Source: an uncultured Spirochaetota bacterium (GTDB lineage: Bacteria; Spirochaetota; B62-G9; DRHN01). From it: a stretch of 64,000 nt of DNA. This document shows positions 1 through 62,213 of this stretch, piece by piece (within the stretch, counting starts at the first letter, position 1; each line of letters starts with the position of its first letter). Both the position numbers and the translations under genes were made by a program. The stretch lies in NCBI GenBank assembly GCA_964433545.1, contig CAYSRJ010000002.1, forward strand, positions 37,020-101,019. The letters are read 5' to 3'. The notes under the pieces were generated by a model that was not told the DNA's origin, did no database searches, and saw only the letters and a list, made by a program, of their open reading frames with translations.

Positions 1-1
1 G

Positions 2-112
2 GGAAGCAGGTCGTATCAGGCTTCTCTTATTCTCAAGGCGCAGGGTTTTAAGAATATCCGTATACTTGAAGGCGGGCTCAAGATGTGGCCTTTTCAAATG
101 GTGCGTGAGTAA
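2..112 (+). CDS. Rhodanese-like domain protein, C-terminal fragment (gene starts upstream of the window)
   Basis: Frame 2 reads ...SYQASLILKAQGFKNIRILEGGLKMWPFQMVRE*, which matches the C-terminal motif of rhodanese/sulfurtransferase domains (xGxRS..A..L...G...V..L.GG...W). Confidence 0.45.
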   Translation, partial: GSRSYQASLILKAQGFKNIRILEGGLKMWPFQMVRE

Positions 113-117
113 CCGCC

Positions 118-230
118 TATGGCTATTAATGACCGAAGGTTATTAATGACCTTGAGCTATAAATGACCGAAGACTACCAAAGGCCTTAGGTTATCAACGA
201 CCTGAGGTTATCAATGGCCTGTGGTTATCA
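118..230. repeat. Tandem about 17-18-bp imperfect repeat (GGTTATYAATGRCCNNNN) x about 7 in the convergent intergenic region between the rhodanese gene and the ABC ATPase
   Basis: Direct reading: ggctattaatgaccgaa ggttattaatgaccttga gctataaatgaccgaa gactaccaaaggccttag gttatcaacgacctgag gttatcaatggcctgtg gttatcagc. Confidence 0.8.
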
Positions 231-1776
231 GCATTCCGATCTCTTCTCTTTTCGCGTCAACACCATCGAGTACTTTAATAATATTTCCCTGAGACATAAC
301 GGCGATGCGGTCGCCCAGCGCCATTATCTCATCCAGGTCTTCGGAAATCAACAGGAAGGATGTGCCTGTTTCCCTCAGTTCCATGAATAGTTCCCAGGTG
401 TGTTCAATCGCTTTTGCGTCGAGTCCCTGTGTCGGATATGCAGCGACGATGAAGCGGGGCCTGCGCCAGGTTTCCCTCCCCAGTATGAGACGCTGTATGT
501 TCCCTCCCGATAGGATTCTGGTAGGTGTTTTCCACAGGTCCGACACAATAGCGCCGAAACTCGCGACAATTTTTTCTGTATGGTTTGTAATATAGGGAAT
601 ATTGAGAAACGAACGTTTCGAAAATGGTGGAATTCTGACATCCTTCAAGATGACGTTCTCTGCGACGGTCATTGCTTCAATCACACCGACCTCACGCCTC
701 ATTTCGGGAATATGCGCTATTCCCGCCTTGATTATTTTTTGTGGTGAGCTGTTCGTAAAATCTTTTCCCTCGATGAGCACCCTTCCGCCTGAAGCGTGCC
801 GCAGCCCGGTTACCACCTCGGCGAGCTCACTCTGACCGTTTCCGGAGACTCCTGCAATACCGAAGATTTCCCCCTCTCTGATAGAAAAAGACACACCACA
901 AAGCGCAGGCTCCTCATCCATTCCCGCTGCCTCGAGGTTTTGCACCTCGAATACGATCCGCTCTGAACGCACGGTTTTTCGCTTTAGCTGTGCCGGCTCG
1001 TGTTCTCCGAACATGAGTCTGACCAGCTCATCTTTGTCTGTCTCGGATGATTTTCTGGTGCCCATGAGCTTTCCGAGTCGAAGTACGGTAACGCGGTCGC
1101 CCATCTCGAGGGCTTCCTCGATTTTATGAGTTATGAATAGGATGCCGTACCCCATTTTCGCCATATTGTGGAGCACTTCAAACAGATGTTGGGCATCAAC
1201 GGATATAAGCGATGTAGGCTCATCGAGAATAAGAATCTCCGGATCATGGTACAGGACCTTGATGATTTCGGCCCGCTGCTGTTCTCCGGCGGAAAGGTCC
1301 TCGATCCGCGCCGTGGGATCGATATGCATATTATATCTCTTCGACAATTCGCGAACCCTGTTTTCTACTTCGCGGAGGGGAAAGGAGAAATTATATCCCG
1401 ACAGCCCGATCGCGATATTCTCGGCTACCGTAAATGGTTTTACAAGAGCCAGCTCCTGGTGTACCATCCCGATGCGGTGACTGAGACCGTCCTTTGGAGA
1501 TTTCAGATACACCGGTTGGCCTTTTACATATATCTGTCCCTCTGTGAGGCTGTAAAATCCTGAAAGGCAGTTTGCAATTACGGTCTTTCCGGCACCATTT
1601 TCTCCAAGGAGGGTATGTATTTCACCCACTCGTACATCGATGTTGATATGATCGAGGATGAGATGCTCCCATACGCCGGGAAATCCCTTGCAGATTCCCT
1701 CTCCCTGTAAAATGACTCTGGTATCATCCGGTCCGGTGTCGTTACTCATAGCTGTCCTGCTCCTTTTCTGTCTCAT
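211..1776 (-). CDS. ABC transporter ATP-binding protein with two ABC domains (nucleoside/sugar importer ATPase)
   Basis: 521 aa; Walker A GENGAGKT plus a second ABC domain; ATGA start/stop overlap with the upstream permease; an alternative start (MSNDTG) 27 nt downstream has an AAGGAG RBS. Confidence 0.9.
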   Translation of the reverse strand: MRQKRSRTAMSNDTGPDDTRVILQGEGICKGFPGVWEHLILDHINIDVRVGEIHTLLGENGAGKTVIANCLSGFYSLTEGQIYVKGQPVYLKSPKDGLSHRIGMVHQELALVKPFTVAENIAIGLSGYNFSFPLREVENRVRELSKRYNMHIDPTARIEDLSAGEQQRAEIIKVLYHDPEILILDEPTSLISVDAQHLFEVLHNMAKMGYGILFITHKIEEALEMGDRVTVLRLGKLMGTRKSSETDKDELVRLMFGEHEPAQLKRKTVRSERIVFEVQNLEAAGMDEEPALCGVSFSIREGEIFGIAGVSGNGQSELAEVVTGLRHASGGRVLIEGKDFTNSSPQKIIKAGIAHIPEMRREVGVIEAMTVAENVILKDVRIPPFSKRSFLNIPYITNHTEKIVASFGAIVSDLWKTPTRILSGGNIQRLILGRETWRRPRFIVAAYPTQGLDAKAIEHTWELFMELRETGTSFLLISEDLDEIMALGDRIAVMSQGNIIKVLDGVDAKREEIGMLITTGH

Positions 1777-2675
1777 TCACGCATGTATGGTGTTCCCATT
1801 GCAGCTGGAAACCTGACCCTGCCGATGACACCGGCCACGATAAGCAGTGTTACAATATAGGGGGCCATGGAAATAAGCTGCCACGGAACAACACTCTGAA
1901 CTGCGGGCATCGTGGATATCCATACCGCAAGATTTTCGAAGAATCCGAAAATAAAACCTCCTAACAGAACCAGAAGCGGGTTCAGTCCGCTGAAAACAAC
2001 GGTTGCCAATGCGATAAAGCCTCTACCAGCCGATATTTCCTTCGTTACAGAGCCCATCCATGCCACGCTGATATAGGCACCAGCAAGGCCGGCGAGGGAT
2101 GCCCCGGCAGCAGTAGAAAAAAGTCTGAGCAGATGAACATTAATGCCAGCGACATCCGCGGCCTGCGGATTCTCTCCTACAGCCCTGATTTTGAGACCGA
2201 GTTTTGTTCTGAAGAGCAGGATCCAGACAATAACCGGCAGTGCAATGGTCACCAGAATCATGGGGCTTATGTTGCCAATTGCAGTGGAAATATTGACCAG
2301 TTGACTCTCCTTGGGTACTGCATGGTGCCCGGGGACGCCGAGGTGTATGAGCCAGAACGCTACCATGCCGATGGCGGCGAGATTGATTCCAACCCCCGTA
2401 ATAAGCTGTACGCCTTTGAAGTAGGTGTTGATCAGCCCGAATATGAGGCCCATGGCAAACCCGGTCGCAAGGCCGGTTACAAGGCCCATGAAAGCGCCCC
2501 ATGCTTCTGCCCCGAGAGCACCGGTCATTGCGCTGAGAAGGATTATGCCTTCAAGCCCGATATTGAACAGTCCCGCGGATTCACCGACGGTTTCTCCCGT
2601 GGCGGTGAGTGTGATCGGGACCATTGCATGGAGCGACCCCGTGAATATTCCGATAAAAAGGTAGGCCAGGCTCAT
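1773..2675 (-). CDS. ABC transporter permease (BMP-family nucleoside uptake system)
   Basis: 300 aa polytopic membrane protein; operon context between the SBP and the ATPase. Confidence 0.85.
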   Translation of the reverse strand: MSLAYLFIGIFTGSLHAMVPITLTATGETVGESAGLFNIGLEGIILLSAMTGALGAEAWGAFMGLVTGLATGFAMGLIFGLINTYFKGVQLITGVGINLAAIGMVAFWLIHLGVPGHHAVPKESQLVNISTAIGNISPMILVTIALPVIVWILLFRTKLGLKIRAVGENPQAADVAGINVHLLRLFSTAAGASLAGLAGAYISVAWMGSVTKEISAGRGFIALATVVFSGLNPLLVLLGGFIFGFFENLAVWISTMPAVQSVVPWQLISMAPYIVTLLIVAGVIGRVRFPAAMGTPYMRE

Positions 2676-2718
2676 TCATTCCTCCGATACCCGGCTCTGT
2701 ATTGCCGGGGTACCTGTT

Positions 2719-3786
2719 TTACAGGGTTTGATCCTTTTTTCTTTTAAAGATGGAAAAGATACGTGACAGCTCGGGAATTGCGAGAAAAAGCACGACGACC
2801 CCCTCCAGTACACGGACCATCTCGAGGGGGACCTGGGCTAAGAGCTGCATCATCCTACCCCCGGCTAACAGGCCGCCGAAAAAAATCGCGGCAAAGATAA
2901 TCCCTGCCGGATGGTTTCTTCCGATCATCGCTACAGCGAGGCCGTCGAAACCGAGGTTCTGTATGGCGGGCAGACCGCCGAACACCGCGTATGTGGGGGG
3001 GCGGCCCATGACGTGCACTGCACCTCCGAGTCCGGCGGTTATCCCGCCCATCACGAATACGGAAAGTATCACCCTCCATTTTTCAATGCCCGCATACCTG
3101 GCTGCATCCTGGTTGTAGCCCATGGCCCGCAAGTCAAAACCGATGACTGTCCGCCAGATAAAAAGCCATACAAGGGCGGCTGCAGCAACAGAGAGAAAAA
3201 TACCGTAGCTGAGGCTTGTTCCCGGCACGAGCAGGGCGAAACGTGCGCCTCTGGCAATGCTGACGGTTTTCTCGGCCCTCTGAGGGTCGACGAGTACTTT
3301 TGAGATGAGGTAGAATGATAAAAAATGCGCGACCCAGTTGAGCATAATTGTGGATATTACTTCATGGACTCCCCTGGTGGCTTTCAAAACGGCAACAGGC
3401 ATACTCCAGATTATTCCGGCAAGTGCCGCTGCAATAATACTCAAAACAAAGGAAAGTGCAGGCGGGAGTCTCAGCAGGGTTATTGAAACAGCAGCAAGCG
3501 CCCCCAGATACAGCTGGCCCTCGGCACCGATATTGAACATGCCGCCCCGAAATCCGACAGCAAAGGTAAGTGCGGTAAGTATCAGTGGCGTGGCGTTTGC
3601 GACTGACTCTGAAAACCCGTACAGGTCACCGAATGCGCCGCTGAGAAGGGCCTGATACGCTGCTATCGGATTATATCCGTATGCCAGTATGATGAGTGCA
3701 CCAACGCAAAACCCGATAACTCCTGCAGTGATCGATTTTCTCAGCTCTTCCGTTCGGTCACGCGCGGTTTTTTTCCAGTCCTTCAT
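2719..3786 (-). CDS. ABC transporter permease (BMP-family nucleoside uptake system)
   Basis: 355 aa polytopic membrane protein, branched-chain/ribose permease family fold. Confidence 0.85.
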   Translation of the reverse strand: MKDWKKTARDRTEELRKSITAGVIGFCVGALIILAYGYNPIAAYQALLSGAFGDLYGFSESVANATPLILTALTFAVGFRGGMFNIGAEGQLYLGALAAVSITLLRLPPALSFVLSIIAAALAGIIWSMPVAVLKATRGVHEVISTIMLNWVAHFLSFYLISKVLVDPQRAEKTVSIARGARFALLVPGTSLSYGIFLSVAAAALVWLFIWRTVIGFDLRAMGYNQDAARYAGIEKWRVILSVFVMGGITAGLGGAVHVMGRPPTYAVFGGLPAIQNLGFDGLAVAMIGRNHPAGIIFAAIFFGGLLAGGRMMQLLAQVPLEMVRVLEGVVVLFLAIPELSRIFSIFKRKKDQTL

Positions 3787-11040: not shown

Positions 11041-11310
11041 TTATTGGTACCTTTTTTCTCCGGCATGACGAAGAATATGTAACCCTGAACCTTACTTTAT
11101 TACAACCTTTTATCGCCCGCACAGGAAAAAAAACATGCTTTCCCAGAAAAATCTTGGGCGAGATGCAGTACTCTTCGGTTTTGTGGGGAAAAACCATATG
11201 ACGCGTGTTGGTTTGCACCTTTTATGATTGAAAGTTCATTTGTCTATTATTTAACCGGCAAAGGAGTGAAATCCCCTTTGCCGGTTAAAAATTATACACA
11301 ATACGCTATC

Positions 11311-18739: not shown

Positions 18740-19364
18740 AAGTGTTGATGAATTTTACAATAATTTTTTAGTGTGATGGTAACGCTGATGCTGCATGTAT
18801 AGTGTGTTTTCGATTATAATCTCACGTTTTTTTATCGTTGCGCCCCCTTTTTTAAAATTGGTATGGATACATTCCTCTAAATTGCCTCGATGTGTGCCAA
18901 ATCAGTTAGACATACAAGATTAAACAGCGATGCATTGAAGCTATCCTTTGAGGATTGTACCGGCTTCTAAGTAACTTAGAACAAGTTGCTTTTTGATACT
19001 CGGCCGCGAAGTGGCTTTCCCCTAGGGGGACTTGCGCCACTTTGTTTTACTTGACCCGGTGCACTGCCGCTGTTAAATTCATTGCCGCAGCAGGAAACAG
19101 CGGGTAATACACAAAAGTTTCGTCGTATTACGGGACTATGTTAAAAAATTAACTATTATTTTAGTGAGACAAATCCTTATATATCTATTCTGCTTTTATG
19201 AAATTGTCAAGGATATTTTCTTTCAGAAGTGAATAAATATCGGGTGAGGTAATAATTATTGCAAGCCCGGGGAAATATTTAAATATTTGAAGAACGCCCT
19301 CAGCATGATAAACATTGTTCAGGTGAATACATAACCTTCATAGAGGCGACCACGGGCACAGATC

Positions 19365-20365: not shown

Positions 20366-22672
20366 ATGGAAAATGCCGGTACAACCGGTGCCGTTATATG
20401 GTACAAAGGCATCGTGCAGGGGGTGGGGTTTCGGCCGCTCGCGTACAGAAGGGCCCACCTTTATCGCCTCAGAGGAACCATCAGAAACACCGAAACCGGT
20501 GTGCACATTGAGCTGGACGGCTCAAGGCGGAGCATCGAACAATTCTACAGGGACGTTCTGAAAAATCCACCGGTTCTCGCTGAAATACATACAAGCTCGA
20601 TCGAATACACGAAACCGCACGGGTTTACAAAACTCAGGATTGCCGGGAGCACCGCAGAAGGAGAGGGGTTTACACCGATCTCCCCGGATATTGCCACCTG
20701 TGACAACTGCCTCGAGGAAGTATTCGATCCGAATAACAGAAGATATCTCTACCCTTTTACCAACTGTACCGACTGCGGACCGCGATTTACAATAATCCAG
20801 TCAGTTCCATATGATAGAAAAAATACGACGATGAGTGAATTCGTCATGTGCTCCGACTGCAGGGCCGAATATGAAAATCCCCTTGACCGCCGGTATCATG
20901 CTCAGCCGAATGCATGTCCCGTATGCGGGCCTTCACTCGAATTGAGGGCCCCGGACGGATCTGTTATCGAAAAAGACGCGCTGGATAATGCGGTCTCGCT
21001 GCTCGAACAGGGGGCTATTGTTGCAGTCAAAGGGCTCGGCGGCTATCATCTGGCAGTTTCACCGCAGAGGCCTGAGTGGGTAATGCGTCTACGGAAAATG
21101 AAGCGGAGGCCCGCAAAACCGTTTGCCTTGATGGCCCGGGATATGCCGACGATAAGGAAGTACTGCATCGTCGGGGAACGGGCAGAGGACCTGCTTGCAG
21201 GCTTTGAACGGCCCATCGTCCTGCTTCGGGGAAGGAAAGGCAAACTTCCCAATGAAATCGCCCCTGATACAGATTGTATCGGTATTATGCTGCCCTACAC
21301 TCCTCTGCATCATATTCTTCTAAGAGAAGGGCCTGAAATACTTATAATGACGAGCGCGAATGTATCCGAGGAACCGCTTGTCTACCGGGACGACGAGGCG
21401 TCAGAAGAGCTCACCGGTATTGCTGATGCATTTCTCGTGCATAACAGGAAGATACAGCGCCCCTGCGACGATTCGGTTTTTTTTGTGAGTGATGGGGTTC
21501 CTGTACCGGTGCGAAGGTCACGTGGGTATGTGCCGAAGGCTATACCCGTCGGCCCGCCTGAAAGGACACTGCTGGCGTTCGGCCCGAACGAAAAAAACAC
21601 CTTCTGTGTTTTTCGGGAAGAAATGGCCTATGTGAGCCACCACATAGGGGATCTGAACAACACCAAGAGTATCGACGCCTATACAGCGGGTATTCAGGAT
21701 TTTTTGAGTATGCTGAGGGTGGAGCCTGAAATACTCGTCTGTGACATACACCCCGATTATATAAGCACACGCATTGCAGAAAGGATGGCCTCGGATCGGG
21801 GAATACACCTTGAGCGCGTTCAGCATCATCATGCGCATATAGCCAGTGTTCTCGGTGAAGCAGATGTTAATGACGCCGTGATTGGTGTTGCACTTGACGG
21901 AACAGGATACGGGACTGACGAGACGATATGGGGTGGTGAGTTTCTTATTGCAACACAGAAGGATTTTACCAGGGCCGCGCGGTATTTCCCCGTTCCCATG
22001 CCTGGAGGTGAAAAGGCGATTATCGAAACTGACCGCATGGCGGTTTCTTACTTGCTTCATGCCTTTGGGTCAGCATCGGGAATTCCGGATTTCCCGTTTA
22101 TTGTAAAATACGATAAAAAAAAGCTGGCACTTTTTGAAAAGATGATACATTCGGGGATTAACTGCCCGCGTACCTCCTCCTGCGGCAGGTTGTTTGATGC
22201 GGTGTCGGCTCTGATAGGCCTCTGTGTTCAGCCGTCATATGATGCACAGCCGGCCGTGCTTCTTGAAACGGCGGCAGGTCCTCCGGAAGCACTGTCCCTG
22301 TCACCGGAGAATGCTTATTCATATAGTATCGATGACGGGATGAACCTGCATTTCGAGCCTGCAATCAGAGAAATCGTCAGCGATATGCAAGGGGGGAGTT
22401 CCCGCAATTTTATCTCACAAAAGTTTCATGCAGCTGTTATATTATCTGGTGTTGATGTATGCAGGCGCCTTCGGAAAAAAACAGGAATAAACACCATTGC
22501 CCTGAGCGGCGGTGTATTCCAGAACCGAATTATTTTAAAGCTCATCCGACGCCTGCTGTCGGAGAATAATTTTTCAGTGCTTTTTCACAGATTGATGCCA
22601 CCGAATGACGGCGGTATTTCCTTCGGGCAGGGAATTGTTGCCCGTCGGCGGTGCGGAAGGGGTGTGGAATAA
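20366..22672 (+). CDS. hypF: Carbamoyltransferase HypF
   Basis: 768 aa; N-terminal acylphosphatase domain, two CxxC-x18-CxxC zinc fingers, YrdC-like and Kae1/HypF C-terminal domains. Confidence 0.9.
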   Translation: MENAGTTGAVIWYKGIVQGVGFRPLAYRRAHLYRLRGTIRNTETGVHIELDGSRRSIEQFYRDVLKNPPVLAEIHTSSIEYTKPHGFTKLRIAGSTAEGEGFTPISPDIATCDNCLEEVFDPNNRRYLYPFTNCTDCGPRFTIIQSVPYDRKNTTMSEFVMCSDCRAEYENPLDRRYHAQPNACPVCGPSLELRAPDGSVIEKDALDNAVSLLEQGAIVAVKGLGGYHLAVSPQRPEWVMRLRKMKRRPAKPFALMARDMPTIRKYCIVGERAEDLLAGFERPIVLLRGRKGKLPNEIAPDTDCIGIMLPYTPLHHILLREGPEILIMTSANVSEEPLVYRDDEASEELTGIADAFLVHNRKIQRPCDDSVFFVSDGVPVPVRRSRGYVPKAIPVGPPERTLLAFGPNEKNTFCVFREEMAYVSHHIGDLNNTKSIDAYTAGIQDFLSMLRVEPEILVCDIHPDYISTRIAERMASDRGIHLERVQHHHAHIASVLGEADVNDAVIGVALDGTGYGTDETIWGGEFLIATQKDFTRAARYFPVPMPGGEKAIIETDRMAVSYLLHAFGSASGIPDFPFIVKYDKKKLALFEKMIHSGINCPRTSSCGRLFDAVSALIGLCVQPSYDAQPAVLLETAAGPPEALSLSPENAYSYSIDDGMNLHFEPAIREIVSDMQGGSSRNFISQKFHAAVILSGVDVCRRLRKKTGINTIALSGGVFQNRIILKLIRRLLSENNFSVLFHRLMPPNDGGISFGQGIVARRRCGRGVE

Positions 22673-25116: not shown

Positions 25117-25171
25117 TTGCAGGGGGCAGCCGCTTGAAAACCAATTATACTAGGAAAAAAGCGTCGTAATT

Positions 25172-25325
25172 CCTTGACAGGATACATCCCCCTGGGATAC
25201 ATCCCCCCGGGACTGAGTATCAGACAGTAACTTGCTCGAAGTTACTTAGAAGCGGTGTTCGTCCCTGTGGGACTGAGTATCGACGAGTAACTTTATAATT
25301 GAAGTTAATTAAAAAAGCCCGAAGG
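25172..25325 (+). repeat. Repeat family 2 copy (TTGACAGG module, 2 x 15-bp units, two GGGACTGAGTATC...AGTAACTT hairpin sub-units) in the hypE/eno convergent spacer
   Basis: ccttgacaggatacatccccctgggatacatccccccgggactgagtatcagacagtaacttgctcgaagttacttagaagcgg...gggactgagtatcgacgagtaacttt. Confidence 0.85.
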
Positions 25326-31835: not shown

Positions 31836-31912
31836 TAAGATACATCTTGCAAAGATACATCTTGAAAAGATACATCTTGAAAAGATACATCTTGCAAAGA
31901 TACAATGTATGG
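31836..31912. repeat. Tandem 15-bp repeat (AAGATACATCTTGMA) x about 4.5, directly upstream of the TPR gene start
   Basis: Direct reading: aagatacatcttgcaaagatacatcttgaaaagatacatcttgaaaagatacatcttgcaaagataca; each unit holds the inverted repeat AAGAT-AC-ATCTT. Confidence 0.85.
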
Positions 31913-31964: not shown

Positions 31965-33077
31965 CTACTGTATCTGTATCTTCCCCCTGCTGCTGCTATT
32001 AATGAGACTCGTGGTCTCCTGCCATCCTGCAGGAAAATCGGGGTCGTGTACGCGGCTTTGCCATTCAATGTACTGTTTTCGTTTGATATACCGGTACATC
32101 TGAAGCTGTCTTGGAGAGAGGAATTCACTGGGGTCCTCATCCAGAAAGAGGGCGTTGTTCACCATAATAGCCTGTTTTTCGGTCATAGGAACGAATCTAT
32201 AGATCGATTTTGAGAGATACCGTTTGTAGCTGGCCTTCCTGGGTGCCGGGACGAACGCATCCGCAGTAGTATCGACGACTTTTTTATCTGGCATGATGCC
32301 ATGAGCAGCGGTGCTCTGTTGTTCATTCATGGGAAAAGCTTCATTGATCAGATTGAGATCGAGCGATGATTTCAAGATGTCTTCGTAGCTGATTGCCGAA
32401 CCGTTGAATTCCAGGTACAGAGCCTCCTTATCACCGATATAACCGGGTTCGGTATAGACGATTCCATGTTCGATACCAAGCTCGACTTCACCCGACCAGA
32501 AGCAGTGCAATGTTATTACTGCTGATTCACGCTTTTCGGCCGCGTTGAATTCCTCATTCACCAGCTTAAGGTATACGGGTGCAGCCATTCCCTCCTGTTG
32601 AAGAGCATCGAGCATAATCCCGGTCAAATGCTTCATCCACGCCGCATCGTCTGAGTTTTTACTTTTTGGATGTCCATCGGTGCCGACTATACTCATTGCC
32701 GTGCCCGTTTTGGTGTCCCCGGGTAAAGAGAGGATGCTATGTTCAGCGGCAACGGCAGGAGAAACAGCAACCGGGATGAAATTCGACTCTATTGCTTCAA
32801 CGATAAGAGGATGACTTAAAATCTCGTTCCGTCGCACGGAAAGCACATCGTTTCCGGTATTACCCAGTATATACACGAGCATCGGTTTGTTTTCTTCCGC
32901 CATTTTCAGCAAAGCTGTGTTGTAGTCAGACAACCAGCGTACCCTCCCCAGGTTTTTATTGTTCAGGGCCGTTTCGGTTCTCAGGTGATCATTTTTATTT
33001 GAGGGAGCGATGCTGCTGCATGAGATTGAAAGTACAAGCAAGGCAGTAAGCACTGTAAAAACCAGTGTCTTTATCAT
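31965..33077 (-). CDS. Hypothetical secreted/lipoprotein-like protein
   Basis: 370 aa; N-terminal signal peptide (MIKTLVFTVLTALLVLSISCSS); no confident family assignment. Confidence 0.5.
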   Translation of the reverse strand: MIKTLVFTVLTALLVLSISCSSIAPSNKNDHLRTETALNNKNLGRVRWLSDYNTALLKMAEENKPMLVYILGNTGNDVLSVRRNEILSHPLIVEAIESNFIPVAVSPAVAAEHSILSLPGDTKTGTAMSIVGTDGHPKSKNSDDAAWMKHLTGIMLDALQQEGMAAPVYLKLVNEEFNAAEKRESAVITLHCFWSGEVELGIEHGIVYTEPGYIGDKEALYLEFNGSAISYEDILKSSLDLNLINEAFPMNEQQSTAAHGIMPDKKVVDTTADAFVPAPRKASYKRYLSKSIYRFVPMTEKQAIMVNNALFLDEDPSEFLSPRQLQMYRYIKRKQYIEWQSRVHDPDFPAGWQETTSLINSSSRGKIQIQ

Positions 33078-33261
33078 TTTAGCACCTCTCTGCTATATAA
33101 AATAATATCCAAAAGATATAAAATCAATAGTATATAGTTAGTATGGTTGCAATTTTCCAATTAGTTGATGCGTTCTGCATTACAGTGTTATTTTATGCTG
33201 CGTATCTTGGCGTGTCATGATTCTGTTTTTCTTAGAAATAAGCAGGTGAGCCTTCAACCTT

Positions 33262-33372
33262 AATAGGTTCAAGCCAATCGGGCTCGCGAATAAGTGTTTT
33301 TCCGTTGCAACTGCATAGCGAGCCCATTCTGACGGCCGAAGGCCGGAAGAACACTTGCCTAATGGTTTTTAC
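33262..33372 (+). repeat. Dispersed intergenic repeat family 1 (MITE/REP-like, about 110 bp), copy A
   Basis: About 85% identical to the copies at about 44209-44355 (reverse) and 54353-54485; internal 8-bp stem GGGCTCGC/GCGAGCCC and a GGCC-GAA-GGCC hairpin. Confidence 0.8.
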
Positions 33373-33447
33373 CTTAATTTATCAATTACTTTAAAAGCCA
33401 TGGAAAATTAAAGGACCATTGTTTTTTTAAAAATCTGGTACAAAATA

Positions 33448-35055
33448 TCAGTCTTTTAATAGATAAAACCATAATTTATACACAGCGGTCAGGAGAATAC
33501 CGAGTGCAATATAGTACCATACCCACAGAGGAAGACCCGCTGCCAGTACCGGAGTCTTCCCCCAGTTCCAGAAATCGTTTCCCAGAATAAAAATTAGGAC
33601 GAAAATCGGTATAAAGAAAAGTGATCCCCTTTTTATCCGAAATACAATATTTGTATTTTCGTTACTGACGCTCGTCAGGGCGCTTACGAATATAAACACA
33701 ACGCCGGTTGCGCTCAGTATGGGAATGACCGGGTGCAAGCCGGATATCTGTATTTTTTCGAAATAATAGGCTACCACCATGAATTCGCCGGTGAATATGC
33801 TTGCGATTGCGCCGAACTTGTTTGCTTTTTTCCAGTACAGGCCGCCTAAAACACAGGGACCGAGTACACTCAGACCGTTGAAGGTCGTCCTGCTGATAAA
33901 TGCAAGAATAGTATTCGGCGGTTTCAAGGCAATTAATAAGCTGACTGCGCCGATCACAATAATGGTGGTTTTTTCCTTTAATATTTCATTCTTCTCTACT
34001 TTGAGAAAATCGATGGTGATCATCGAAGTAAGAGTCAAGAGCTGGGAGTCCATTGTCGACATGAGCGCTGCGATGGCTCCGGTCAACAGGAGGGTGCTCA
34101 GGAAGGTGCTCGTATAGTTTCCAAGCAATAGCGGGAAAATGGTATCCGATCTGCCTGCCTCTAAAGCGGGAAATGCCGATCTTCCCATAACACCTATCGA
34201 TACGGTTAGGAAAAAAAGAAACGTGGTTATGATAGGGTAGAGGATCACCGTCGTGTGGAGGGTCTCGCGGTCCTTTGCAACCATGAAACGCTGAAAGAGC
34301 TGTGGAAACATTGGGTCCGCAAAGAACCAGAGCACCATGTAACCAATCCAGATTCCAAAGCCCATCGAACCGTTCATTCCCGGTCTTGAAAAGAGTGAAG
34401 GTGCATTGGAAAAAATAGTTTCATGCACGTGAATAAACCCTCCGCTTTTCCGGGCAATAATTATAAATGCGGTGAGTGTGAATACAATCATCAACACTCC
34501 CTGGAAAAAGTCCGTCCACACAATTGATCGGAGTCCGCCGAGCACCACATAGGTTACCACAAATCCGGTAATAAGAAGTGCTCCAGCGAGGTAGGGAATA
34601 CCGATAAGCGAATTGAGCGATTTCCCGCTCGCGATGGCCTGCAGGGAAATGTAGGGCAGTGTGAAAATAATCATTATCATGGAGAAGAGTTTTTTCAGGA
34701 AGGGTGAGTTGTACCGGTCCTGGATAAAATCCGAGGGAATTATGTAGTTCCTCTTTTTTGAAAGGATAAGGATTTTTTCTCCGATAACGATGAATGAAAG
34801 CGCCATGAATGCCGTTCCGAAGCCCATAACCGGATAGAATGAGTAACCGATTCTGTAGCCGGCGCCGGAAAAGCCGAATATCGTAAAGGCACTGAAGTTA
34901 GTCGCAGCCATTGTAAAGAAAAGGAGCATGCGGTTCAAATTACGGCCTGCAAGAAAGAATTCGACAGAACTGATCCGTGCGCTTTTTCGAAACAGCACAC
35001 CGATACCGAGCGTTGCGAGAAGATAAACCAGTACAATGGAAAGTTGTGTAATCAT
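33448..35055 (-). CDS. Sodium:solute symporter (SSS) family transporter
   Basis: 535 aa; 13-14 TM helices; SSS family sequence features. Confidence 0.8.
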   Translation of the reverse strand: MITQLSIVLVYLLATLGIGVLFRKSARISSVEFFLAGRNLNRMLLFFTMAATNFSAFTIFGFSGAGYRIGYSFYPVMGFGTAFMALSFIVIGEKILILSKKRNYIIPSDFIQDRYNSPFLKKLFSMIMIIFTLPYISLQAIASGKSLNSLIGIPYLAGALLITGFVVTYVVLGGLRSIVWTDFFQGVLMIVFTLTAFIIIARKSGGFIHVHETIFSNAPSLFSRPGMNGSMGFGIWIGYMVLWFFADPMFPQLFQRFMVAKDRETLHTTVILYPIITTFLFFLTVSIGVMGRSAFPALEAGRSDTIFPLLLGNYTSTFLSTLLLTGAIAALMSTMDSQLLTLTSMITIDFLKVEKNEILKEKTTIIVIGAVSLLIALKPPNTILAFISRTTFNGLSVLGPCVLGGLYWKKANKFGAIASIFTGEFMVVAYYFEKIQISGLHPVIPILSATGVVFIFVSALTSVSNENTNIVFRIKRGSLFFIPIFVLIFILGNDFWNWGKTPVLAAGLPLWVWYYIALGILLTAVYKLWFYLLKD

Positions 35056-35205: not shown

Positions 35206-35387
35206 TTTCACCTTGGCATAACCCGTTATTGTATTGTATACGTATAAGCGTATAACGTCAATTATTTTTATACTAATAGCGTATTGGAATGGAGTTGTTT
35301 ATTCATGATGCTCAGCGTAATCTGCTGATTGTAAGTACATGTTAAAAGCGACGTGAATCCCCCTGGGAATGTCGCTTCGCGGCCGAG

Positions 35388-35590
35388 CCTTGACAGGATA
35401 CATCCCCCCGGGATACATCCCCCCGGGATACATCCTCCCGGGAAACATCCCCCCGGGATACATCCTCCGGGGATACATCCTCCGGGGACTGAGTATCAAA
35501 CAGTAACTTGTGCGAAGTTACTTGGAAGCGGCCTACCTCCTGAGGGACCGAATATCATGAAGTAACTTCGCGAGAAGTTACTTAGAAGTA
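35388..35590 (+). repeat. Dispersed composite repeat family 2: TTGACAGG module + 6 x 15-bp tandem GGGATACATCCYCCS units + two AGTAACTT...AAGTTACT hairpin sub-units
   Basis: Direct reading; related copies at about 25172-25325, 48581-48700 (reverse), 62101-62213, and degenerate ones at about 18962-19045 and 50170-50265. Confidence 0.85.
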
Positions 35591-44105: not shown

Positions 44106-44208
44106 CTCCCATACTCACCCCAAGTAGCCCATGTAAAAAAGATCAGCAGAAGGTGCTTTTTTCCTTACAATCGATGGTCCGACAATCCGCAATTATGGTT
44201 TTATCCAT

Positions 44209-44355
44209 TGGAATACCGGCATTCCATGTCGGAGAAGGCTGGTTCATCCGGCCTTCGGCCGTCAGAATGGGCTTGCTATTCAGTTGCAACGGAAAAACAC
44301 TTATCAGCGAGCCCGATTGGTTTGAACCTTTTTTGATTGAAAGTTAACTTGCCTA
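44209..44355 (-). repeat. Dispersed intergenic repeat family 1, copy B (reverse orientation) with the GGCAAGTTAACTTTCAAT end module and an alternative tail
   Basis: Reverse complement aligns to copy A (33262-33372) and to copy C; its tail (…GGATGAACCAGCCTTCTCCGACATGGAATGCCGGTATTCC) recurs in copy C at about 54578-54612. Confidence 0.8.
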
Positions 44356-44412
44356 TATACATTATGGGTACGGTGTACCTGGGATATTAACGGGGAAAGA
44401 GGGATTCTTATC

Positions 44413-48514: not shown

Positions 48515-48580
48515 ATATGGTTTTATCCATTAAAAGTCTAATAGTATGTATAAAGATTTACAATATACAATGGTCTTTTA

Positions 48581-48800
48581 CTTCTAAGTCACTTCTCGCG
48601 AAGTTACTTTATGATATTCGGTCCTTCGGGGATACATCCTGTCAAGGACGTAGACCACTTCCAAGTAACCTCGATTAAGTTACGTTTTGATACCTAGTCC
48701 TGCCAAGGACTAGTCGTGACAGAGATCGGCTGCGAAGTCGCCACTTTTCCTTGGCTCGTTAAGCATTGGGAAATTAAGGTAAAAACCATTAGGCAAGTGA
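48581..48800 (-). repeat. Repeat family 2 copy (reverse orientation) followed by the CTAGTCC-TGCCAA-GGACTAG hairpin and a family-1 tail fragment (AAAAACCATTAGGCAAGTG)
   Basis: Reverse complement of 48590-48655 matches 35545-35590 and 62139-62213 nearly base for base. Confidence 0.8.
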
Positions 48801-48943
48801 TAAATTGTATCTTTTAGAATTAACAAGCTAACGTACCTATTTTTTCAATTATTCTGTGTGCAAGTTTTTTTCCGGGATACTAATAAAGTAAAAAAAGTGT
48901 TACGGAAAATCAATCATTATTTGAAATACTGCTTGCATGTATA

Positions 48944-49000
48944 CCAAGGGCACAGGTACCAAGGGCACAGGTACCAAGGGCACAGGTACCAAGGGCACAG
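48944..49000. repeat. Tandem 15-bp repeat (AAGGGCACAGGTACC) x 4 immediately 3' of the TPR gene
   Basis: Direct reading: accaagggcacaggtaccaagggcacaggtaccaagggcacaggtaccaagggcacag. Confidence 0.85.
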
Positions 49001-49017
49001 AAGAGTGAAAAACCGGT

Positions 49018-54231: not shown

Positions 54232-54352
54232 CACTCAGGGGCGGAGGGGATAATTAAGGATTCTCGAATACGTTTTAGTTGACGTTGAATTTTTTTATCG
54301 TTATCTTTTTCCTATCCGGAAAATGGCTAAATCTTCTTTGAATAATACTATA

Positions 54353-54612
54353 GGCAAGTAAACTTTCAATTGTAGAAGACCAAACCGATCGGGCTCGTTG
54401 ATAAATGTTTTTCGTTACAACTACACAGGCGAACCCATTCTGACGGTAGAAGGTCGGAAGAACGCTTGCCTAAGGGTTTTTAGCGAAATTTGTCAATGCT
54501 TAATAGGCCGTGGACAGGAAAAGAGTTATTGTCTATTAAAAAAACCGGTATTAAGGATACCGGGGAATACTGGTACAAAACACCAGCCTTCTCCGGCATG
54601 GAATGTCGGTAT
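54353..54612 (+). repeat. Dispersed intergenic repeat family 1, copy C, with an 80-bp insertion carrying an A7-hairpin (CCGGTAT-TAAG-GATACCGG) before the tail module
   Basis: GGCAAGTAAACTTTCAAT...GGGCTCG...CCCATTCTGACGG...CTTGCC; the core aligns to copies A and B; the tail aligns to copy B. Confidence 0.8.
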
Positions 54613-54617
54613 TCTAA

Positions 54618-55424
54618 GTGGATAGAATCATAAAAATAGAAAATATGGATAGAAAAGATAAAGAGAATTCAAAGCGTAAAAAAAACACTGAAGCCAGTAG
54701 AGGATACGATAAAAAGGGCGATGAACAGGAGATTTCGATAGACAAACTCGATGCGACGAATAATCAGGAGATTTCGGCTGAAAAGAAGAAAAACGGGCAA
54801 AATACAACCCAAGAATGTTCACCCGCAAAGACGCTTTTGCAAACCCTCTGTGAAGATGAACTGCAGGAACTTCTCAGCGTCAGAGAGAAACTTGACGAAC
54901 AGTCGAAAATTCTGGAAGAGAAGAAGAGCCTCCTTTCCGAATATGAGGACCTGCTTAAGCGCAAACAGGCGGATTTTGAAAATTATCGTAAGAGAGTCCA
55001 GCGGGAATTCGATGATTTTAAAAAATATGCAACCTCTGATCTTGTTCTCGACATCCTGAACGTTATAGACGATTTTGAACGGGCTATCGATTCTGCACGG
55101 TCGTCAAAGGATTTCGACACGCTTCTCGAAGGCATCCTGCTTGTGGAAAAACATCTCCGGAACCTTCTCGAGAGCAAGTACGATATCGAGCCTATTGAAA
55201 CTGTCGGCAGAGAATTTGACCCAATGGTCCATGATGCAATCATGATGGAAGAATCAGAGCAATACAGTGAAGATACAGTGGTAGAGGATTTCCAGAAGGG
55301 ATATAAACTCCATGATAGAGTTTTGAGACCTGCCAAGGTTAAGGTTGCGAAAGCTGTATCTTCGAACAGTGCGTCAGACGAAAAAACCGATGAAGTAGCG
55401 GAATCCTCCGGGAAAGGAGATTAA
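54618..55424 (+). CDS. grpE: Nucleotide exchange factor GrpE with a Lys/Glu-rich N-terminal extension
   Basis: 268 aa; C-terminal GrpE four-helix bundle/beta domain features; precedes dnaK. Confidence 0.85.
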
Positions 55425-61317: not shown

Positions 61318-62106
61318 CTATCCCTCCTCCTCTCGCAGGCCTTTCAACCATGTGCCGTTGATTCTGATAAAAGTATGCTGCGGCTCGGGGAATTCCCGGC
61401 CCTCAAAAAATACATAAACATAGGCTTTATTCTGGTTGGCGAAAACCACCCGTGATATTTTCAAAGTCTTTATCTGCCCTTTTCTCCTCGTTTCAACAAG
61501 AAGGTTGAAAAAAGAATGGAGGTCTGCTGCATCCCACCCGTCATTGTGCAGGTTTTCGGGATTGCCGTACTTCTTTCTGTAATCCGGGGTTAACATGCCC
61601 TTCCACCCTTCAAAGTCATCCTTTTCATACATTTCCTCGAGCTTGTTGATAATCTCGAGTATGTTCTCTGCTTCATGTTTTGCTTCTCCAGCGTCAATTG
61701 CAGTAGAGACATTATCACTTTCGGGCAGTACGACTTCTATTTTCGAATCCTGTTCGGGGACTGAGATGGTTAATTCTTCCGTGTTTTCCATGTTGGTATT
61801 ATCGGCGGCAACTTCAGTCCCGGCGGGTTCTTTCTGCTTTATTTCAACCTGAGTTTGTTCCAAAGGCTCCCGGGTGGATTTATGTTCTGAAGGCTTCTCT
61901 TCAACACCTGACGGCCCCTGTTGCTGGTAATCAAACTGCACAGATTTTTTTCCTGAACAGCCGGTTATAAAAAGTACCGCACATGCGGTGAGCAGAAGGC
62001 ACCCTCGTATATTCTGAAATTTATTCATCATTATATAAGGAATTTTAACAACTTCTCCTTTTTTTTCAATATCTTTCTCCTCCTGCGAATAAGGGAGGTG
62101 TATCAA
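61318..62106 (-). CDS. Hypothetical lipoprotein
   Basis: 262 aa; lipobox FITGC after a hydrophobic h-region; acidic low-complexity linker. Confidence 0.5.
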   Translation of the reverse strand: MIHLPYSQEEKDIEKKGEVVKIPYIMMNKFQNIRGCLLLTACAVLFITGCSGKKSVQFDYQQQGPSGVEEKPSEHKSTREPLEQTQVEIKQKEPAGTEVAADNTNMENTEELTISVPEQDSKIEVVLPESDNVSTAIDAGEAKHEAENILEIINKLEEMYEKDDFEGWKGMLTPDYRKKYGNPENLHNDGWDAADLHSFFNLLVETRRKGQIKTLKISRVVFANQNKAYVYVFFEGREFPEPQHTFIRINGTWLKGLREEEG

Positions 62107-62213
62107 ACAGTATCTTGATCGATGTTACATAGAAGCGGTCTACATCCTTGACAGGATGTATCCCTGGGGGATCGAATATCGCAAAGTAACTTCGCGAGAA
62201 GTTACTTAGAAGA
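62101..62213 (+). repeat. Repeat family 2 copy (sub-unit a'-TTGACAGG module-sub-unit b)
   Basis: CCTTGACAGGATGTATCCCTGGGGGATCGAATATCGCAAAGTAACTTCGCGAGAAGTTACTTAGAAG, nearly identical to the reverse complement of 48590-48655. Confidence 0.85.

Follow-up and report, generated by a model that had tools for sequence, protein, structure and literature searches.

A stretch of 64,000 nucleotides from an uncultured Spirochaetota bacterium (contig CAYSRJ010000002.1, positions 37,020 to 101,019), called the window below, contains five copies of a dispersed repeat. These copies very probably represent a family of non-autonomous mobile elements, similar to MITEs (miniature inverted-repeat transposable elements), with a lineage-specific spread. 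The explanation that we favor as a whole, with a probability of about 0.8, is a family of gene-less elements of approximately 70 to 280 nt that reside in the chromosome of this marine or salt-marsh spirochaete and of some of its relatives, and whose mobility would depend on an enzyme supplied in trans from another part of the genome. An original prediction, made from the window sequence, had proposed either a non-autonomous element of the MITE or repetitive extragenic palindromic (REP) type or a family of structured RNAs. The mobile-element half of that reading is supported by the dispersed copies and by four sites that are filled in the window and empty in related genomes. The family appears to be undescribed and of a known kind. 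Its existence is not surprising, since bacteria commonly carry small non-autonomous repeats and an unusual richness in MITEs has been reported for spirochaetes (PMC11602168). Its build is unusual, with two adjacent units bounded by inverted repeats, an optional 80-nt core, outer ends that are not inverted repeats of each other and an ATA flank in a fixed orientation.

Copies of the element in the window

Self-BLAST of the window and a repeat finder located the repeat at the three places named in the original prediction, the intervals given there being the central parts of longer copies. Copy A, on the forward strand at 33238-33473, is full length, with a body of 230 nt between ATA flanks at 33238-33240 and 33471-33473. 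Its unit 1 (approximately 33239-33361) runs from TAAGCAGGTG through the core to CACTTGCCTA, and its unit 2 (approximately 33362-33472) from ATGGTTTTTACC through CTGGTACAAAATATCAG to TAATAGATAAAACCAT; the 5' module is present, though diverged (TAAGCAGGTGAGCCTTCAAC). Copy B, on the reverse strand at 44194-44356, has a body of 157 nt, and its flanks read TAT on the forward strand (44194-44196 and 44354-44356). It consists of the 5' module and the core, with the core end CGGATGAAC joined by a deletion to a tail hairpin, CCGACATGGAATGCCGG, and the end TAATGGATAAAACCAT; CACTTGCCTA and ATGGTTTTTACC are missing. Copy C, on the forward strand at 54350-54632, is the longest, with 277 nt between ATA flanks at 54350-54352 and 54630-54632, and it contains both tail hairpins and an additional hairpin, AAAAAACCGGTATTAAGGATACCGG.

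Two further copies lack the core and lie on the reverse strand. Copy D (approximately 11177-11247) is degenerate, with a body of about 70 nt in which ATA is followed by GACAAATGAACTTTCAATCATAAAAGGTGCAAACC, AACACGCGTCAT and ATGGTTTTTCCCCACAAAACC; its right boundary is uncertain. Copy E (48516-48840) has a diverged 5' module and ATA flanks at 48838-48840 and 48516-48518. It is interrupted on the same strand at 48580-48743 by a nested insertion of the GGATGTATCC/GTAACTT type, flanked by GAAAAG and TAAAAG, which belongs to a second repeat family and not to the one described here. Self-BLAST detected these copies as partial matches, at 11187-11247 (E 1e-7) and at 48745-48799 together with 48516-48583. 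Partial copies had been predicted near 11185-11250 and 48779-48800; both are real, and the latter turned out to be one whole coreless copy split by the nested insertion. Searching the window with profiles of the core and of the second unit revealed no further copies, and no new copy was seen in 3.5 kb of extra sequence beyond it.

The similarity of the copies is substantial. By self-BLAST, A and B (33238-33352 and 44356-44242) are 87% identical over 115 nt (E 7e-31), A and C (33238-33440 and 54350-54550) are 74% identical over 204 nt (E 5e-33), and the cores of B and C are 80% identical over 117 nt. A separate tail of approximately 50 nt common to B and C (44193-44243 and 54582-54633, 88% identity) was found as predicted. 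The window copies are 77-85% identical among themselves and up to 88-90% identical to copies on other contigs. Because they are less alike than they are to some of these foreign copies, the family must be older than the insertions seen here, with sub-lineages common to several genomes.

Copies in other genomes and metagenomes

Genomes, one per species, were scanned with a 20-nt core pattern, and metagenomes with a stricter pattern. The genome scan gave 21 matches, 18 of which were single chance matches in unrelated phyla. The other three, all in the uncultured Spirochaetota metagenome-assembled genome (MAG) CAZGJW01, were the only ones that aligned to the whole element, with 77-87% identity. 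The metagenome scan gave 11 matches on 10 contigs of salt-marsh type, which correspond to approximately six further distinct copies. A profile search of the metagenome contigs added a copy without the core (L023b, at 8233-8390 of contig L023). One metagenome copy ends at the edge of its locus so that the unit-2 tail alone is visible, and another, on contig L026, has a partial internal duplication of the core. In total, 13 distinct copies were found, five in the window and at least eight elsewhere. All are intergenic, except that copy A overlaps the end of a gene, and the DNA into which they inserted is AT-rich.

Copies beyond the window had been set as a test of the original prediction, and such copies do occur at unrelated positions, both in a second Spirochaetota MAG and on metagenome contigs. 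The copies occur in both orientations and beside unrelated genes in several genomes. The presence of copies on other contigs and in other genomes rules out a local duplication within the 64 kb. The genes flanking the 13 copies have no detectable similarity to one another, and several have recognizable enzyme-like N-termini. A link to one neighboring gene was considered since several copies adjoin open reading frames (ORFs) of about 370 codons, but these are mutually dissimilar (all-against-all BLASTP, E 1e-3). A phage or plasmid origin was likewise rejected: pattern scans of viral contigs gave chance matches only, such as one inside a phage-like coding sequence on contig L056, and BLAST against plasmid and phage collections gave no match. 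When the full-text literature was searched for four signature strings in both orientations, only unrelated papers of the primer type came up.

Filled and empty insertion sites

Syntenic contigs of close relatives were reached through homologs of the GrpE, symporter and permease proteins encoded in the window. Sites A, B, C and E are each empty in at least one syntenic relative, and a single (A)TA marks the empty site, whereas each junction of the filled site has one. Site E reads GAAAAAATATATGGAG on contig L042 of the MAG CAZFTJ01, from which copy E is absent; in the window and on contig L044 it reads GAAAAAATA, element, ATATATGGAG, and the L044 copy is uninterrupted (GAGCCAGGTAAAAGAC). Site A is empty on contigs L046 and L047, where GGGATAT is followed by T(C/T)TT..., and in the window a TAT lies at either end of the element. 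Site B is empty on L042 and L047, whose sequences align with the window flanks on both sides of a TA/ATA. For site C, the closest relative (contig L045, GrpE 92% identical) reads AATAATACTGTAGAAATAGAACAAATGG, and the window reads AATAATACTATA, 277 nt, ATAAAAATAGAAAATATGG; the element is likewise missing here from L044 and L042, which are more distant relatives. The MAG CAZFTJ01, represented by contigs L042, L046 and L061, has no copy in approximately 47 kb of synteny, compared with five in the 64 kb of the window.

Filled and empty pairs with a short target repeat at both junctions are signatures of mobile-element insertion. Examination of the junctions for a target-site duplication had been proposed with the original prediction, and at A, B and E the empty site indeed has one (A)TA and the filled site two. 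The junction repeat reads ATA, or minimally TA, and may be a target duplication of 2 or 3 bp. Such filled and empty sites are clean markers with which closely related populations of uncultured spirochaetes could be separated in sediment metagenomes.

Site A also shows what was interrupted. The insertion point lies within the last nine codons of a sodium:solute symporter gene. The last nine codons and stop of this gene in the window (33448-33477, reverse strand) encode KLWFYLLKD and are read from the tail of copy A. The relatives end in ...GIFLRRTES (...AVYGIFLRRTES) and the window protein in ...AVYKLWFYLLKD, each followed by the stop, and the lengths are equal; the alignments to the homologs P0122 and P0123 cover no more than 98% of the query. 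The original 3' end with the old stop codon has been displaced and now lies beyond the far side of copy A (33210-33237, reverse strand). Its local alignment to L047 and L046 has a score of 38, which was reached by none of 1000 shuffles. Judged from these sequences, copy A appears to have replaced the nine C-terminal residues of the symporter.

Modular structure

The anatomy of the element was derived from an alignment of copies inside and outside the window. Unit 1 begins at TA with GGCAAGTG, continues with a 35-nt 5' module (AACTTTCAATC.TAAAAGGTTCAAACC) and an optional core of about 80 nt, and ends with CACTTGCC followed by TA; in the consensus its 10-nt ends are perfect inverted repeats. The core includes a stem, GGGCTCG/CGAGCCC, around a T-rich loop and a hairpin, CGGCC-GAA-GGCCG, within UUCU.../...AGAA. 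Unit 2 follows directly and runs from ATGGTTTTTACC through a variable spacer of 70-150 nt to GGATAAAACCAT. The spacer holds a CTGGTAC... hairpin and usually CTGGTACAAAA, and the ends of the unit are imperfect inverted repeats (ATGGTTTTTACC/GGATAAAACCAT). Inverted repeats thus bound the inner units only (TAGGCAAGTG/CACTTGCCTA and ATGGTTTTTACC/GGATAAAACCAT); the pair GGCAAGTG/CACTTGCC is real and does not delimit the whole mobile segment. A 5' module inverted relative to a 3' ACTTGCC had been described for copies B and C as resembling terminal inverted repeats. The inverted repeat itself holds up, but copy B has no ACTTGCC, copy A also has the 5' module, and the repeat bounds an inner unit. By direct reading, the motif GGTT..A.CC occurs three times per element, as GGTTCAAACC, GGTTTTTACC and GGATAAAACC.

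Internal deletions and duplications produce mosaic variants of this plan, with bodies of 157-277 nt apart from the degenerate copy D. Copies D, E, L023b and the copy on L044 are coreless, and C and L026 have extra hairpins. Copy B and a related copy, L013, lack the first part of unit 2 through a deletion of approximately 100 nt. From the sequences, we infer that this deletion occurred between the core end CGGAAGAAC and a second CGGATGAAC like that seen in L026. The stretch in question had been taken for an 80-bp insertion in copy C; most copies elsewhere possess it, and it is better seen as a deletion in copy B. A small encoded protein was rejected. The reverse strand of copy B has an ORF of 56 codons and copy A an unrelated one of 28 codons, and the 1-nt indels that differ between copies mean that no ORF is conserved.

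Ends of the element and the putative mobilizing enzyme

Several observations weigh against the explanation given at the outset. At the site C junctions, two substitutions are needed relative to the closest empty site. At site D, the relatives (contigs L061 and L062) are shorter than the window by 54-87 nt (about 63 nt) and the junctions are blurred. For any single site, the relatives may in principle have lost the element by precise deletion. No autonomous partner with matching ends was found in plasmid, phage and viral collections; the genome and metagenome scans used the core pattern only. The outer ends have no terminal inverted repeats: with the left 45 nt matched against the reverse-complemented right 45 nt, nine of ten copies did no better than shuffles, the tenth was reached by 36 of 500 shuffles, and only 1-4 of the first 15 positions matched. 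This argues against simple cut-and-paste movement of the whole unit by a DDE-type transposase. Finally, the orientation of the flanks is fixed relative to the element, with (A/G)TA on the left in all copies and ATA on the right in all but one. Nearly all copies have an A before the left TA, but only about one quarter have a T after the right TA. A symmetric duplication of a TA or ATA target does not predict such a fixed orientation.

A DDE-type transposase making a 2-3-bp target duplication would nonetheless be the single most likely mechanism, at slightly less than even odds, by analogy with TA-flanked repeats such as the Correia, RUP and ERIC-type elements (PMC3184786). It is distinctly less probable that the same mobile element is moved by a strand- or site-specific enzyme, such as an HUH transposase of the IS200/IS605 type (which would make the element a palindrome-associated derivative), a serine recombinase or an enzyme of the IS110 type. 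In that case the enzyme would recognize the left ATA as its target, and the right ATA would be the terminal sequence of the element itself at which cleavage or crossover takes place, with no true duplication. Outer ends without terminal inverted repeats and an ATA in a single orientation are what such an enzyme would leave. In addition, conservation is confined to the left flank, which is A/T-rich and then reads ATA, whereas the right flanks are unrelated; subterminal hairpins are abundant; and one ATA in empty and two in filled sites fits this scheme as well as it fits a duplication. However, insertion into single-stranded DNA of the lagging strand should give a strong strand bias, and in the part of the window with uniformly positive GC skew (20-64 kb) two copies lie on the forward and two on the reverse strand, a small sample (n=4). 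IS608-type ends have left and right hairpins that are alike, but the hairpins near the two ends here are, by direct reading, dissimilar. A 3-nt target is shorter than the usual 4-5 nt, the conserved 10-14-nt target on both sides that RNA-guided insertion of the IS110 type needs is not present, and the element has no Rfam match to the IS605-associated RNA motifs. No gene for such an enzyme was seen near any copy. More generally, the window ORFs that were scanned, and those syntenic with annotated contigs, yielded no transposase domain, and no gene resembling a REP-associated tyrosine transposase (RAYT) was found in the window.

Somewhat more doubtful again are two more novel readings of this composite. 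In one, it would be the non-autonomous form of an element moved by a non-DDE enzyme (strand-specific and HUH-type, or guided by RNA or structure) not yet tied to such spirochaete repeats, with the conserved folded core and the GGTT..A.CC motifs as the recognition structure; in the other, two different inverted-repeat units would have fused and be mobilized as one by an enzyme reading internal sites. The combination of missing terminal inverted repeats and an oriented ATA makes this family a small but useful case for the question of which enzyme moves such elements.

Secondary structure and possible regulatory roles

The structured-RNA half of the original prediction proposed conservation at the level of RNA. 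Unit 1 of copy A does fold, on the written strand, as a closed multi-helix structure (-48.4 kcal/mol, z -4.5), and over 10 copies the helices are paired in approximately 90% of cells compared with 29-44% for slid partners. One copy, L003, has a true compensatory change, from C-G to U-A, and another stem pair has two U-A cells. Together with the location of copies C and E in likely 5' leaders, these features would suit non-coding RNAs that form a structured family, either small RNA genes or cis-acting leaders, conserved for RNA function, with spread being secondary. We consider such a family very improbable, for the opposite strand of copy A folds nearly equally (-46.2 kcal/mol, z -3.4), as DNA palindromes would, and covariation is at the level of the shuffle control (89.8% against 89.3% paired, with a score reached by 74 of 500 shuffles); the RNAalifold covariation term is about zero. 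Stem changes compatible with G-U pairing had been predicted. The changes in GGGCTCG/CGAGCCC give C-A on the written strand and G-U on the opposite strand only, whereas those in the GGCC hairpin do give G-U on the written strand. Since the G-U-compatible changes fall on opposite strands in different helices, they are as expected of neutral transitions in a DNA palindrome. Moreover, orientation is mixed, with copies A and B lying antisense to their neighboring genes and C, D and E lying sense; B, D, E and L023b lack entire helices or the entire core; and no consistent pair of promoter and terminator accompanies the copies. The covariance-model check that had been suggested identified no known family: the window has no Rfam match at the gathering threshold, copy A has none even at E<=10, and copy C has sub-threshold chance matches only. 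Thus, with no significant covariation, RNA conservation is unsupported. We treat the folding as a property of palindromic element DNA, which would matter at the RNA level only for copies that happen to lie in a transcript.

A repeated regulatory DNA site, such as an operator or an array bound by a nucleoid protein, could also be spread by recombination, with the GGTTnnAACC-like motifs as its binding sites. The three occurrences of GGTT..A.CC per element fit this idea, as does the fact that every copy is faced by at least one gene start. It is very improbable, and slightly more so than an RNA family, because the neighbors have no common function (symporter, lipoprotein, radical SAM enzyme of the tRNA-modification type, chaperones, GreA, peptide ABC transporter), the orthologous promoters in close relatives work without the element, and one copy lies inside coding sequence. 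The discrete junctions with a repeated ATA are the signature of insertion.

Genomic setting

The genes that flank the copies in the window are ordinary chromosomal ones. They include two ABC transporter operons, an NiFe hydrogenase with hyp maturation genes, enolase, secDF-yajC, the sodium:solute symporter, a MiaB-like radical SAM enzyme, an 896-aa GreA, smpB, hemW and grpE-dnaK-dnaJ. Homologs of the window proteins are labeled Spirochaetota or Spirochaetes. An identical DnaK, the same gene order and the same hemW-grpE spacing are found on contigs of many JGI sediment metagenomes and on Logan assemblies.

The presence of the copies has concrete local consequences: a transporter C-terminus that appears rewritten, copies placed between promoter-like blocks and the starts of grpE-dnaK-dnaJ and greA, and a left end that can supply a -35 sequence to neighbors. 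Copy C lies between a conserved block upstream of grpE and the grpE start codon (54645), its end being 12 nt upstream of that start. The block, of 47 nt (54262-54309; TCTCGAATACGTTTTAGTTGACGTTGAATTTTTTTATCGTTATCTTTT), lies approximately 45 nt upstream of copy C. It is near-invariant among relatives with 78-92% GrpE identity (six variable columns among four sequences) and holds TTGACG-17-TATCTT and lacks a CIRCE element; probably it serves this lineage as its heat-shock promoter or operator. Copy E ends 1 nt before the first ATG of the greA ORF, just upstream of GGAG, and a conserved block lies further upstream. Copy D lies between the substrate-binding-protein and permease genes of an oligopeptide-type ABC operon. 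Judging by position, C and E should be transcribed as strongly folded 5' leaders of grpE-dnaK-dnaJ and greA. Read outward, the left end of the element contains TTGAAA, and TTGAAA-16/17-TATTAT/CATTAT is found in copies B, where it faces the MiaB-like gene, and C. Placed in this way, the outward TTGAAA can pair as a -35 element with a -10-like hexamer of the AT-rich flank. A sigma-54 or other promoter in the conserved CTGGTACAAAA tail was considered and rejected: direct reading revealed no -12 element, and generic promoter scans found nothing consistent inside the element except the outward TTGAAA.

Three features of the surroundings were noted in passing. The gene next to copy A (31965-33200) encodes a predicted lipoprotein of 370 aa with a signal peptide, a Cys lipobox and a weak thioredoxin-like match (E 2.7e-4). 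It is missing from the orthologous interval between the symporter and tetratricopeptide repeat (TPR) genes on L046 and L047, a gene-sized indel separate from copy A. At approximately 18700-19700 gene orientation switches, with the hydrogenase operon running leftward and the hyp genes rightward, at a minimum of cumulative GC skew; the gap carries a fragment of the second repeat family and may simply be a divergent promoter region. To the left of the window start, positions 1-3600 of the Logan contigs L059 and L060, from the same population, encode NikR, a large protein in which a histidine kinase and an oxidoreductase are fused, and the end of a product of 768 aa. The latter has the same length as the product of the HypF-like window ORF at 20366-22672, and may be a paralog or an alternative assembly join.

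Other repeats

The second repeat family consists of GGATACATCC repeats and GTAACTT...AAGTTAC hairpins. Besides the insertion in copy E, it has copies at approximately 25159-25293, 35375-35590 and 62063-62212, and the fragment in the hydrogenase-hyp gap lies at 18963-19008. It too behaves as a mobile insertion, since it is nested in copy E of the window and copy E of L044 is uninterrupted; it possibly makes a duplication of 5-6 bp.

Two tandem repeats were also seen. Directly past the stop of a TPR gene, at approximately 48940-49005, there are four units of a 15-nt repeat, CTGTGCCCTTGGTAC. One unit of the same sequence is present at approximately 3965-3985 of contig L030, within the CTGGTAC hairpin of the element copy L030b (CTGGTAC-CTGTGCCCTTGGTAC-AAAA). 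At 31837-31911, upstream of a small TPR gene and a dihydrofolate reductase gene, an array of AAGATACATCTTG(A/C)A has four to five units, and L046 and L047 have a single unit at this position. The GATACATC core of this array resembles the GGATACATCC of the second family and may be a shared protein-binding motif.

Relation to known elements

The element has most features of a classical MITE: it is small, has neither a transposase nor a conserved ORF, occurs in multiple dispersed and mainly intergenic copies, shows insertion polymorphism and has short repeats at its junctions. The classical definition also includes terminal inverted repeats (PMC3184786). Because the true ends lack these, we call the family MITE-like rather than a MITE family.

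The Correia elements of Neisseria (CREE/NEMIS) are similar in being gene-less, intergenic and flanked by TA, in their presence or absence among strains, in carrying outward promoter elements, in giving transcribed hairpins and in having no known mobilizing enzyme (PMC3184786 and general knowledge). However, at approximately 100-160 nt they are smaller than the modular element described here. They have 26-bp terminal inverted repeats at their true ends, whereas here the outer ends are unrelated and inverted repeats are found at inner positions only, and there is no sequence similarity and the host phylum differs. BOX elements of Streptococcus pneumoniae (boxA-boxB-boxC), compared by description, are modular mosaics with optional and duplicated modules, and like the element are intergenic, foldable and without a known transposase (general knowledge and PMC3184786). 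In contrast to the (A)TA repeat at four filled and empty pairs, BOX has no documented target duplication, and the sequences and hosts are unrelated.

MITEs of the IS630/Tc1-mariner type (RUP of the pneumococcus, the Stowaway type) and ERIC-type repeats share with the element TA at both junctions, short length, lack of coding capacity and AT-rich intergenic targets. Those elements have terminal inverted repeats that match a partner insertion sequence, but here outer repeats are absent, a partner was not found, and the extra A of ATA is oriented. Palindromic derivatives of IS200/IS605 and the REP/REPIN-RAYT systems resemble the element in having no terminal inverted repeats, hairpins near the ends and a fixed short flank in a fixed orientation. 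They differ in that no HUH transposase or RAYT gene lies near the copies, the end hairpins are dissimilar, there is no Rfam match to IS605-linked RNA motifs and there is no strand bias, as far as the small sample goes. REP and REPIN sequences are GC-rich imperfect palindromes of 20-40 nt, present in hundreds of copies and associated with a RAYT gene. The label 'REP-like' of the original prediction is not apt for this element, which is 5-10 times larger than REP and modular and for which no RAYT-like gene was found in the window. In its behavior, the element is closest to Correia and the TA-flanked MITEs; in its build, to BOX; and in its ends and oriented flank, to the palindromic elements derived from IS200/IS605.

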